A DNA stretch of 64,000 nt from Escherichia coli (lineage in GTDB: Bacteria > Pseudomonadota > Gammaproteobacteria > Enterobacterales > Enterobacteriaceae): NCBI RefSeq assembly GCF_003334405.1, contig NZ_QOWM01000001.1; one strand, written 5' to 3'. The notes below the pieces were generated by a model. The model was not told the DNA's origin, ran no database searches, and saw only the letters and a program-made list of their open reading frames with translations. A program made the translations under genes and the position numbers. Numbering within the stretch: the first letter of the stretch is position 1; each line of letters starts with the position of its first letter. Below, piece after piece: positions 37,891-41,019 of this stretch.

Positions 37891-38106
37891 ATCGCAGATA
37901 GCAAAAAAGCGCCTTTAGGGCGCTTTTTTACATTGGTGGGTCGTGCAGGATGACTCGCTTCGCTCGCCCTTCGGGCCGTCGCCGCGAGCGGCTCCGTTGT
38001 TTCGCTGCGCTCAACTCAAACCTGCTGCAGGTTCGAATCTTTGAGTATCGCAGATAGCAAAAAAGCGCCTTTAGGGCGCTTTTTTACATTGGTGGGTCGT
38101 GCAGGA
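37891..38106. repeat. 60-bp perfect direct repeat (37891-37950 and 38047-38106) containing terminator hairpin plus tRNA-Lys 3' end, bracketing a 96-bp GC-rich insert (37951-38046)
   Basis: Both copies read atcgcagatagcaaaaaagcgcctttagggcgcttttttacattggtgggtcgtgcagga; only the second continues into a complete tRNA-Lys. The insert carries the inverted repeat gctcgc...gcgagc around cccttcggg and a T-arm-like gcaggttcgaatc. Confidence 0.8.
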
Positions 38107-38165
38107 TTCGAACCTGCGACCAATTGATTAAAAGTCAACTGCTCTACCAACTGAGCTAACGACCC
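38090..38165 (-). tRNA. lysV: tRNA-Lys (anticodon UUU)
   Basis: 76-nt match to the canonical E. coli tRNA-Lys (GGGTCGTTAGCTCAGTTGGTAGAGCAGTTGACTTTTAATCAATTGGTCGCAGGTTCGAATCCTGCACGACCCACCA) on the minus strand. Confidence 0.95.
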
Positions 38166-38168
38166 GAG

Positions 38169-38244
38169 TGGTGGGTGATGACGGGATCGAACCGCCGACC
38201 CCCTCCTTGTAAGGGAGGTGCTCTCCCAGCTGAGCTAATCACCC
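38169..38244 (-). tRNA. valU: tRNA-Val (anticodon UAC)
   Basis: 76-nt cloverleaf sequence GGGTGATTAGCTCAGCTGGGAGAGCACCTCCCTTACAAGGAGGGGGTCGGCGGTTCGATCCCGTCATCACCCACCA on the minus strand, 3 nt upstream of lysV; only one Val copy is present. Confidence 0.95.
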
Positions 38245-38261
38245 CCGCTGTGTGGAGTCGC

Positions 38262-38289
38262 ATTATAGGGAGAGTTCAAAATGAGTCAA
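38262..38289 (-). promoter_or_regulatory. sigma70 promoter of the tRNA-Val/Lys operon
   Basis: On the minus strand: TTGACT, 16-bp spacer, TATAAT, placed about 20 nt upstream of the tRNA-Val 5' end. Confidence 0.65.
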
Positions 38290-38502
38290 CGCATTTTCTA
38301 AAGAAATTGTTCGTTCGTCGTAAATTTAAGCAAGATGATCGCAAAACAGACCGTGTTGCGCAATTTGTCAACGAAAACAATAATGCGTAAGGTAGAAACC
38401 CGAACTACATTGAGGAATCAGGCGGGAGTGATAGAATATCGCCCACTTAATTTTTCCAGGATTTGCCGGTTGTCGGCATCTTTCTAAACGTAAGGCCATT
38501 TC

Positions 38503-39918
38503 ATGAAAATCAAAACTCGCTTCGCGCCAAGCCCAACAGGCTATCTGCACGTTGGCGGCGCGCGTACTGCTCTTTACTCCTGGCTTTTTGCACGTAACCA
38601 CGGCGGTGAGTTCGTGCTGCGTATTGAAGACACCGATCTTGAGCGTTCCACGCCGGAAGCTATCGAAGCCATTATGGATGGCATGAACTGGCTGAGCCTG
38701 GAGTGGGATGAAGGTCCGTACTACCAGACCAAACGTTTTGATCGCTACAACGCGGTGATCGATCAGATGCTGGAAGAGGGCACTGCTTATAAATGCTATT
38801 GCTCTAAAGAGCGCCTGGAAGCGCTGCGCGAAGAGCAAATGGCGAAAGGTGAGAAGCCGCGTTATGACGGTCGCTGCCGCCACAGCCATGAGCATCATGC
38901 TGATGATGAACCGTGTGTTGTACGTTTTGCTAACCCGCAGGAAGGTTCTGTTGTTTTTGACGATCAGATCCGTGGTCCGATCGAGTTCAGCAACCAGGAA
39001 CTGGACGATCTTATTATCCGCCGTACCGATGGTTCCCCAACCTATAACTTCTGTGTGGTTGTCGATGACTGGGATATGGAAATCACCCACGTTATCCGTG
39101 GCGAAGACCATATCAACAACACGCCACGCCAGATCAACATTCTTAAGGCCCTGAAAGCGCCGGTGCCGGTTTACGCGCACGTTTCTATGATCAATGGCGA
39201 TGACGGTAAAAAACTGTCCAAACGTCACGGGGCAGTCAGCGTAATGCAGTATCGTGATGACGGTTATTTGCCAGAAGCACTGCTGAACTATCTGGTGCGT
39301 CTGGGCTGGTCCCACGGCGATCAGGAAATCTTCACTCGTGAAGAGATGATCAAATACTTCACTTTGAATGCCGTCAGCAAATCTGCCAGTGCGTTCAACA
39401 CCGACAAGCTGCTGTGGCTGAACCATCACTACATTAACGCGCTGCCGCCGGAGTATGTTGCTACTCACTTACAGTGGCACATTGAGCAGGAAAATATCGA
39501 TACCCGTAACGGCCCGCAGCTGGCTGATCTGGTGAAACTGCTGGGCGAACGCTGCAAGACGCTGAAAGAGATGGCACAGAGCTGCCGTTATTTCTACGAA
39601 GATTTTGCTGAGTTCGATGCCGACGCCGCGAAAAAACATCTGCGTCCGGTAGCGCGTCAGCCGCTGGAAGTGGTTCGTGACAAACTGGCCGCGATTACTG
39701 ACTGGACCGCTGAAAACGTTCATCACGCTATTCAGGCGACGGCGGATGAGCTGGAAGTGGGTATGGGTAAAGTTGGTATGCCGCTGCGTGTCGCCGTAAC
39801 CGGTGCGGGGCAGTCTCCAGCACTGGATGTTACCGTTCACGCAATTGGTAAGACCCGCAGTATCGAGCGTATCAACAAAGCGCTGGATTTTATTGCTGAA
39901 CGCGAAAATCAGCAGTAA
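38503..39918 (+). CDS. gltX: glutamyl-tRNA synthetase (471 aa)
   Basis: Class I motifs: HIGH-type ([13 protein letters not shown]) and KMSKS-type (KLSKR); 471 aa. Confidence 0.97.
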
Positions 39919-39935
39919 TTAGCGTGTAAAAAGAT

Positions 39936-39967
39936 AAACGGCAGGAGATAATATCCTGCCGTTTTTT
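39936..39967. terminator. bidirectional intrinsic terminator between gltX and yfeD
   Basis: Hairpin cggcagg-agataatat-cctgccg followed by T6; A/T-rich on the other side. Confidence 0.7.
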
Positions 39968-39969
39968 AT

Positions 39970-40362
39970 TTATGCTGATTCGTCAATATCGAGACGGGCG
40001 AGGAAATTGCGAATTCCTTCACGTGACAAAAATTGCGCGACTTTTTCCTGCTCAATGTCTGTCATATTATCTATCGCGTTGATGATTTGTCGATACGCCG
40101 GGGCGCGTGCTCCAGGAGCGTATTCAGCAATTCTCTCTTCAGCTTCCATCAACATTGGTGTGTTATGGAAGGCTGGCGTGTTCTGAATAAACTCGCAAAC
40201 TTGCGTATCGACCAGAATAAGTCTGGCACGACCGCCTTTCACGCCGGGAAATTTTTCCGTTTTCCAGCCTTTTTCTCTGATCCAACGGTTAACAGTTTGT
40301 TTAGCCACACCGAGGCATTCAGCCAGTTCTTCGGTGGTCATTTTATTGCGTAATCTTTTCAT
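39970..40362 (-). CDS. yfeD: putative HTH DNA-binding protein YfeD (130 aa)
   Basis: N-terminal HTH-like segment (TTEELAECLGVAKQTVNRWIREKGW); paralogous to the adjacent yfeC. Confidence 0.85.
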   Translation of the reverse strand: MKRLRNKMTTEELAECLGVAKQTVNRWIREKGWKTEKFPGVKGGRARLILVDTQVCEFIQNTPAFHNTPMLMEAEERIAEYAPGARAPAYRQIINAIDNMTDIEQEKVAQFLSREGIRNFLARLDIDESA

Positions 40363-40363
40363 A

Positions 40364-40708
40364 TTATTTGCTATCGCGAATCCCTAAGCGTTGTAACAAT
40401 CCGATAATCCCTTCCCGCAGAAGCAAGGATGTAAACTGTTTTTGTTCAACTGGCGTCATCTCTTTCGCCAGTGTCACCAGCAATACTTCAAGCGGCGCAT
40501 CACCAGAAAGGGCAGGCGCTTCTCCCTGACCTTCTGGACGTTCAGCATTGCGAATATATTCACGAACCTGTTCATTGACGTGAACCAGTCGGGCTTTGCC
40601 ACCCTGGACGCCAGGTTTTGGTGACGTTGTCCAGCCTTCCTTGCGTACCCATTTATTAATGGTCTGGCGGCTATAGCCGGTCAGTCTGGCAAGTTCATCT
40701 GGTGTCAT
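40364..40708 (-). CDS. yfeC: putative HTH DNA-binding protein YfeC (114 aa)
   Basis: Stop 1 bp upstream of the yfeD start; same motif architecture as YfeD (TPDELARLTGYSRQTINKWVRKEGW ... PGVQGGKARL); the track ORF begins 5 codons upstream at 40723. Confidence 0.82.
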   Translation of the reverse strand: MTPDELARLTGYSRQTINKWVRKEGWTTSPKPGVQGGKARLVHVNEQVREYIRNAERPEGQGEAPALSGDAPLEVLLVTLAKEMTPVEQKQFTSLLLREGIIGLLQRLGIRDSK

Positions 40709-40883
40709 CCTCTCCTTGAACATAACAATTCCCTGAATGTATGTGGGTCTATTAGTAGTTCATTTTATAACACCACTTTACAGGAAACCGTGACATGAAT
40801 AACTACTGAATGCGAGCGGTTTTCCAAAATTGTTCATTTGCCTGATTTTTCAGCGATTGAAACTACACGTTGCAATTTGCCGT

Positions 40884-40912
40884 TGACACATTCGGGCGGA
40901 ATTCATATGATG
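40884..40912 (+). promoter_or_regulatory. sigma70 promoter of the tRNA-Ala gene with GC-rich discriminator
   Basis: TTGACA, 17-bp spacer, TATGAT, followed by gccgcccg (stringent-type discriminator) about 30 nt before the tRNA. Confidence 0.6.
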
Positions 40913-40943
40913 CCGCCCGTCAACTCGACAAGCTTTACGTGAC

Positions 40944-41019
40944 GGGGCTATAGCTCAGCTGGGAGAGCGCTTGCATGGCATGCAAGAGGTCAGCGGTTCG
41001 ATCCCGCTTAGCTCCACCA
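40944..41019 (+). tRNA. alaW: tRNA-Ala (anticodon GGC)
   Basis: GGGGCTATAGCTCAGCTGGGAGAGCGCTTGCATGGCATGCAAGAGGTCAGCGGTTCGATCCCGCTTAGCTCCACCA; a single copy. Assignment to alaW rather than alaX is arbitrary. Confidence 0.95.

Follow-up and report, generated by a model that had tools for sequence, protein, structure and literature searches.

In Escherichia coli K-12 MG1655, two tandem arrays of transfer RNA (tRNA) genes lie near gltX, which encodes glutamate--tRNA ligase: valU-valX-valY-lysV (b2401-b2404) and alaW-alaX (b2397-b2396). The three Val genes are identical, which gives exact repeats of 76–84 nt, and the two Ala genes are also identical, within an exact repeat of 81 nt. K-12 has related genes at another chromosomal locus (~780 kb in K-12), in the lysT operon (lysT-valT-lysW-valZ-lysY-lysZ-lysQ). 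Here we consider a 64,000-nt stretch of E. coli DNA (RefSeq assembly GCF_003334405.1, contig NZ_QOWM01000001.1), which we will call the window. At the positions of the two arrays, the window has one tRNA-Val gene followed by tRNA-Lys, upstream of gltX, and one tRNA-Ala gene, beyond yfeC. These single copies had been noticed from the letters alone (the sequence-only reading), in comparison with the K-12 arrays and with two explanations offered: recombination between identical repeats, or collapse of the repeats during assembly. Both explanations found support, and they are still the only serious ones. We propose that the tandem repeats probably collapsed when short reads were assembled into a draft, which left the single-copy state. 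We give this a probability of about 0.68, which includes the case of a true locus that is arranged differently.

Missing tRNA genes and paralogue-type variants

In the window, ARAGORN found three tRNA genes and no others, and all three are backed by Rfam (63–79 bits versus a gathering score of 29), so the single genes do lie where the sequence-only reading had placed them. tRNA-Lys(UUU) (38090–38165, minus strand) is the homologue of lysV and is the last gene of its operon. tRNA-Val(UAC) (38169–38244, minus strand) is a single copy that is identical to valU, valX, and valY of K-12. On the other side of gltX, tRNA-Ala(GGC) (40944–41019, plus strand) is a single copy that is identical to alaW and alaX.

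The K-12 arrays as that reading gave them, with three Val and two Ala genes, agree with the MG1655 annotation and with a BLAST alignment of the window to MG1655. The alignment has three collinear blocks, whose ends overlap within the Val gene (38169–38244) and within the Ala gene (40944–41024). Compared to MG1655, the window is exactly 242 bp short at the Val locus, the length of two Val units, and exactly 115 bp short at the Ala locus, the length of one Ala unit. The 242-bp junction falls somewhere within the 76-nt exact Val repeat (38169–38244), and the 115-bp junction falls within the 81-nt exact repeat (40944–41024). There is no further change between the two loci: 38169–41024 is 100% identical to MG1655. 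The spacers that are specific to the arrays in their K-12 form are all missing from the window. These are 44 nt and 46 nt long between the Val genes (ACTACTTTATGTAGTCTCCGCCGTGTAGCAAGAAATTGAGAAGT and CTTTCTCGCCAGCTAAATTTCTTGTAAAAATGTGAAGTACCGAAGT) and 39 nt long between the Ala genes (AATTTTGCACCCAGCAAACTTGGTACGTAAACGCATCGT).

Over the matching part of K-12, tandem exact repeats of more than 61 nt occur only as the Val units and the Ala units, and the window has a single copy of each. The exact direct repeats left in the window reach 61 nt at most. The loss of whole units with a junction inside an exact repeat is predicted by collapse and by real deletion alike, so it does not discriminate between them.

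The spacer between the Val and Lys genes (38166–38168, minus strand) is CTC, instead of the CTTC that is found in K-12 and in all close relatives. In the lysT operon of K-12, valZ and lysY are separated by CTC. Similarly, position 38058 is G in the window and in the lysT-operon paralogue, versus A at the lysV locus of K-12. These are the two sites at which the lysV locus of K-12 differs from its lysT paralogues, and the window has the paralogue type at both. The lysT operon is the source of exact matches to both the Val-CTC-Lys block and its tail: window 38244–38090 matches valZ-CTC-lysY (100% identity over 155 nt), and window 38165–37898 matches lysQ and its downstream region (100% identity over 268 nt). 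But the lysT operon does not have these two stretches side by side, and a single tract of gene conversion in vivo therefore cannot yield both of them, while a walk through a collapsed assembly graph can.

The source of the window is a draft. The window comprises bases 160001–224000 of the 666,967-bp whole-genome shotgun contig QOWM01000001.1, from a multi-contig assembly (GCA_003334405.1). Contig bases 182562–203488 match the window exactly, at offset 22561. The first base of the window corresponds to position 2,566,207 of K-12, and the first base of the contig projects onto 2,726,207, assuming no net insertion or deletion over 160 kb. This is 19 nt past rrfG (2,726,069–2,726,188), in the 5S-23S spacer of rrnG. 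A contig start that is this near to the end of any rrn operon has a probability of ~6e-4 by chance. Ribosomal RNA (rRNA) operons are the usual breakpoints of assemblies that are made without long reads, so we infer that the draft is of the short-read type. The closest relative that we found, which has the same rare YfeR allele and 4 single-nucleotide polymorphisms (SNPs) in 15 kb, is represented by a Logan short-read assembly; there, a contig breaks within the terminator repeat, on the side of the Lys gene that faces xapR.

If collapse is correct, then the tandem exact repeats (76–84 nt for Val and 81 nt for Ala) would merge into one node of the assembly graph whenever the k-mer is shorter. 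The assembler would pass through the merged node once, and the unique spacers (44, 46, and 39 nt) would be lost as fragments below the assembler's threshold. The stretch from the Val gene through the spacer, the Lys gene, and the terminator would be filled by a path that is shared with the lysT-operon paralogues, which would yield the CTC spacer and the G variant. Reads from the isolate would be expected to contain the missing spacers. One cause, collapse, accounts for four differences. Short tandem repeats are known to be hard to resolve when paired short reads are assembled (PMC2821320). Judging from its sequence, the window would be like collapsed tandem repeats in de Bruijn-graph short-read assemblies, with the same loss of whole units, the same junctions inside exact repeats that exceed typical k-mers, and a draft contig whose end lies at an rRNA operon.

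Copy number in finished genomes and close relatives

We surveyed 5,426 finished E. coli genomes from RefSeq with short junction-spanning queries. (Queries of 236 nt and 203 nt were not used for counts, as overlapping pieces got joined; shorter queries were used instead.) The junction of Val, the first spacer, and Val is present in 5,265 genomes, and the junction of Val, the second spacer, and Val is present in 5,182. These counts imply that ~93% of the genomes have at least three Val copies, ~6.5% have two, and ~0.5% have one. The single-Val junction, which runs from upstream of the Val gene through the spacer to Lys, is found in 26 of the 5,426 genomes (0.5%), although one of the 26, STK78-E, in fact carries Val-Lys-Val-Lys. 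The single-Ala junction is found in 133 genomes (2.5%), and the other 97.5% keep at least two Ala genes. The sequence-only reading had allowed that most strains might be single-copy at these loci; instead, the large majority are multi-copy.

Both contractions are present in five genomes (HNSQ2209, TUM2826, FP4, TUM14668, and Xuzhou21), or ~0.1% of the total, and these represent at least 3 lineages. The first four were found with a padded chimeric query, which ranked the genomes with both single-copy junctions first; Xuzhou21 has an insertion between the two loci. The annotations of HNSQ2209, TUM2826, and Xuzhou21 confirm one Val and one Ala gene in each. So the one-Val/one-Ala architecture is rare, yet it is already present in public finished genomes. 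The two single-copy states co-occur more often than expected under independence (5 observed versus 0.64 expected; hypergeometric P ~4e-4, or P = 0.025 when three similar genomes are counted once).

HNSQ2209 (NZ_CP137737.1, finished) has the same architecture as the window (xapR, RtT, Lys, one Val, gltX, yfeD, yfeC, one Ala, and pdeA), and it is collinear with the window across 5.3 kb, with 4 differences. It differs from the window in having the CTTC spacer and the A variant. We also considered that HNSQ2209 might be a sister strain, which would show that the architecture was inherited, but its flanks are only 98.4–99.7% identical to the window, which rules this out.

TG1 is a K-12 laboratory strain, and its assembly (NZ_CP196935.1, 3456–3611) has one Val gene, with the CTTC spacer, and two Ala genes, unlike other K-12 genomes. 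Either the contraction is recent and took place in the laboratory, or the "complete" assembly is itself collapsed here.

Among the 25 single-Val-junction genomes that were listed, all have a 4-nt spacer except for AS19-RrmA- and STK78-E, which have CTC. The 4-nt spacer is CTTC in all four of the single-Val-junction genomes in which it was read. Overall, CTC is present at the gltX-side locus in four finished assemblies: AS19-RrmA-, STK78-E, BL21-RIPL, and one BL21(DE3). AS19-RrmA- has a single Val gene, and 236 nt of it are identical to the window, from upstream of the Val gene through Val-CTC-Lys; it has the G variant as well.

CTC might have been the native allele of the B lineage, but only BL21-RIPL and one BL21(DE3) assembly match the second spacer plus Val-CTC-Lys at 100%, and the other 58 genomes listed have the 4-nt spacer. 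This rules out a native B-lineage allele, and it means that CTC is rare at the lysV locus. In the BL21(DE3) assembly NZ_CP081489.1 (3154–3753), Val-Val-CTC-Lys adjoins a 5S rRNA gene and mobB, not gltX, and one of the Val genes is annotated as 80 nt long; this arrangement is either a rearrangement or an assembly problem. Related assemblies of laboratory strains, from the same accession series, have similarly odd matches in two pieces.

STK78-E (NZ_CP162185.1, 19665–20110) is finished and has a hybrid array at gltX: Val-CTC-Lys, a 135-nt spacer like that between lysT and valT, and then Val-CTTC-Lys. Its sequence suggests that the valU-type operon and the lysT operon exchanged DNA, or that they were mis-joined. 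Also in STK78-E, yfeD is interrupted by IS4321.

The best matches to window 1–25000 among finished genomes have ~2 mismatches in 25 kb. USMARC-51408 and SW071611, which are among these best matches and are the nearest finished relatives, both have three Val genes, the CTTC spacer, and two Ala genes. Other close relatives vary: ETEC1716 and Z1323CEC0017 each have three Val genes and one Ala gene, JP538 has two and one, and S30 has two of each. A 156-bp unit with an RtT-like element, which is flanked by 61-nt repeats, also comes and goes. It is present in K-12, SW071611, Z1323CEC0017, S30, and HNSQ2209, and it is absent from USMARC-51408, JP538, and ETEC1716. The RtT unit is thus a third copy-number polymorphism at the Val/Lys locus.

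Collapse weighed against contraction

The alternative to collapse is a real contraction, in which two Val units and one Ala unit were lost through recombination among the identical tandem tRNA genes. We think that this is possible but less likely. The perfect direct repeats (76–84 nt, spaced 115–122 bp apart) would recombine or slip, by unequal crossing-over, single-strand annealing, or replication slippage. The CTC spacer might then have come from ectopic gene conversion, templated by valZ-CTC-lysY, and one event could both drop Val copies and change the spacer, although contraction does not depend on this. Contraction is consistent with the missing segments, which are whole numbers of repeat units and have their junctions within perfect repeats, and with the single-copy states in finished genomes from several lineages (~25 for Val, 133 for Ala, and 5 for both). 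It is also consistent with the variation in copy number, and in the RtT unit, among very close relatives. Furthermore, AS19-RrmA- has the identical 236 nt, with the CTC spacer, and also the G variant, and the hybrid array of STK78-E suggests an exchange with the lysT operon. Differences of one tRNA gene copy, up or down, have been documented among E. coli strains (PMC4539685), and losing redundant tRNA copies is tolerated, at times even with a benefit (PMC9981150). However, the nearest finished relatives have three Val genes, CTTC, and two Ala genes, so a real origin needs three or four independent rare events (loss of Val, CTTC to CTC, possibly A to G, and loss of Ala) on a terminal branch that is very short, at only ~2 SNPs per 25 kb. 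The combination is seen in just ~0.1% of finished genomes, and the source of the window is a draft of the short-read type. Collapse may also have affected some of the "finished" single-copy genomes, given the 5 co-occurrences where 0.64 were expected.

A more specific version, in which both contractions are real and ectopic conversion from the lysT operon (with valZ-CTC-lysY as the donor) replaced the sequence of the Val-Lys block, seems quite improbable to us. If it did occur, it would be a natural case of concerted evolution between dispersed tRNA operons, which would drop copies and homogenise the spacer in one step, and AS19-RrmA- and STK78-E would be further instances. It is also conceivable, but very improbable, that the true locus has some other arrangement, such as a hybrid Val-Lys-Val-Lys array as in STK78-E or a two-copy array, and that the assembly shows a reduced version of it. 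In STK78-E, a longer hybrid array begins with the upstream-Val-CTC-Lys sequence as its first unit, and two-copy Val arrays are present in ~6.5% of finished genomes. But the hybrid array was seen just once, and nothing in the window points to such an arrangement specifically; it is also a sub-case of assembly collapse.

Several observations weigh against collapse. Contracted alleles are present in finished genomes from several lineages, five of which have both. The close relatives vary in their copies of Val, Ala, and the RtT unit, so the locus is unstable in vivo. The short-read draft AARZGN01 resolves three Val and two Ala genes correctly, so collapse is not automatic. The G variant is natural in S30. 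And by our own reasoning, an assembler with k=77 or larger should retain two or more Val copies. What tips the balance towards collapse is the draft source, with a contig end at an rRNA operon, together with the paralogue type of the variants.

Genomic context and implications

Other than the gene count, both loci are ordinary E. coli operons, of the valU type and the alaW type. The gene order is xapR, the Lys and Val genes, gltX, yfeD, yfeC, the Ala gene, and pdeA. As in a valU-type operon, the Val/Lys locus lies between xapR (36941–37825, plus strand) and the divergent gltX (38503–39918, plus strand), which separates the two tRNA loci and is 100% identical to the K-12 gene. After yfeD (39970–40362, minus strand) and yfeC (40364–40723, minus strand), the Ala locus lies between yfeC and pdeA (from 41228, plus strand), as in an alaW-type operon.

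A promoter-like site (TTGACT-16-TATAAT; 38262–38289, minus strand) lies upstream of the Val gene and is divergent from gltX, and another (TTGACA-17-TATGAT; 40883–40911, plus strand) lies upstream of the Ala gene. Both are near consensus. On the 3' side of the Ala gene, there is a terminator-like hairpin with a run of T (41027–41050, plus strand). The region downstream of Lys (37891–38107, minus strand) contains repeats and, just past the Lys gene, an RtT-like element (Rfam RF00391, 46.7 bits; 37934–38059, minus strand). The element is bracketed by identical 61-nt direct repeats, at 37891–37951 and 38047–38107, each of which comprises the last 18 nt of tRNA-Lys and the terminator. The promoters, terminators, and mature tRNA sequences of both operons are all intact, as far as can be judged from the sequence.

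The valU operon of K-12 shares its position, promoter-like site, Val and Lys sequences, terminator, and RtT-like tail with the locus in the window. It differs in having three Val genes instead of one, CTTC instead of CTC, and A instead of G in the proximal terminator tail. Similarly, alaW-alaX has the same position, promoter-like site, tRNA sequence, and terminator, but two copies instead of one.

The remainder of the window is ~99.98% identical to K-12. Besides the missing tRNA units, the differences from MG1655 over the 64 kb are 13 substitutions, the 1-nt difference in the spacer, and the absence of CPZ-55 and IS186C. At window 700–730, eutA adjoins eutB, which is an empty site; MG1655 has the cryptic prophage CPZ-55 there (2,558,691–2,565,480). 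IS186C lies between nupC and pdeA in MG1655, and in the window its target site is empty (43435–43446, where the alignment blocks overlap by 12 nt). These differences indicate that the strain is a natural member of phylogroup A that is very close to K-12. We also considered an engineered or laboratory derivative of K-12, but the 13 SNPs are spread over 64 kb, and empty sites for CPZ-55 and IS186C are like those of natural phylogroup-A strains, which rules this out.

Two of the substitutions are absent from every finished genome that we compared: 33181 A>G and 41189 G>T. The first is a missense change in YfeR, from Asp to Gly (PLI-G-AAL, where K-12 has D), and by exact-protein look-up, the Gly allele is on only 10 contigs of a large assembly index, one of which is QOWM01000001.1, the source of the window. 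The second is in the intergenic region between the Ala gene and pdeA.

The window also has a pair of inverted repeats (9830–9979 and 20759–20908), which are 150 nt long, 87% complementary, and 10.8 kb apart, and a weaker pair (24268–24370 and 54535–54637). Both pairs are possibly dispersed intergenic repeat elements.

Whether the single-copy state is an assembly artefact or a polymorphism of a known kind, the feature is ordinary. It does call for care in the use of draft assemblies, where counts of tRNA genes, and tRNA-adaptation indices, under-count tandem arrays, and where variants in tRNA blocks with several copies (here, CTC and G) may come from paralogues. With a real contraction, this genome would have three Val(UAC) genes instead of five and one Ala(GGC) gene instead of two. 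Such a state would be tolerated, as it is in the ~0.5% (Val) and 2.5% (Ala) of finished E. coli genomes that have it, and it would carry little biological weight. Deletions of redundant tRNA genes have small effects on fitness that depend on the medium (PMC9981150). More broadly, the tRNA loci that flank gltX are a small hotspot for changes in copy number, with one to three Val genes, one or two Ala genes, and an RtT unit that is present or absent.

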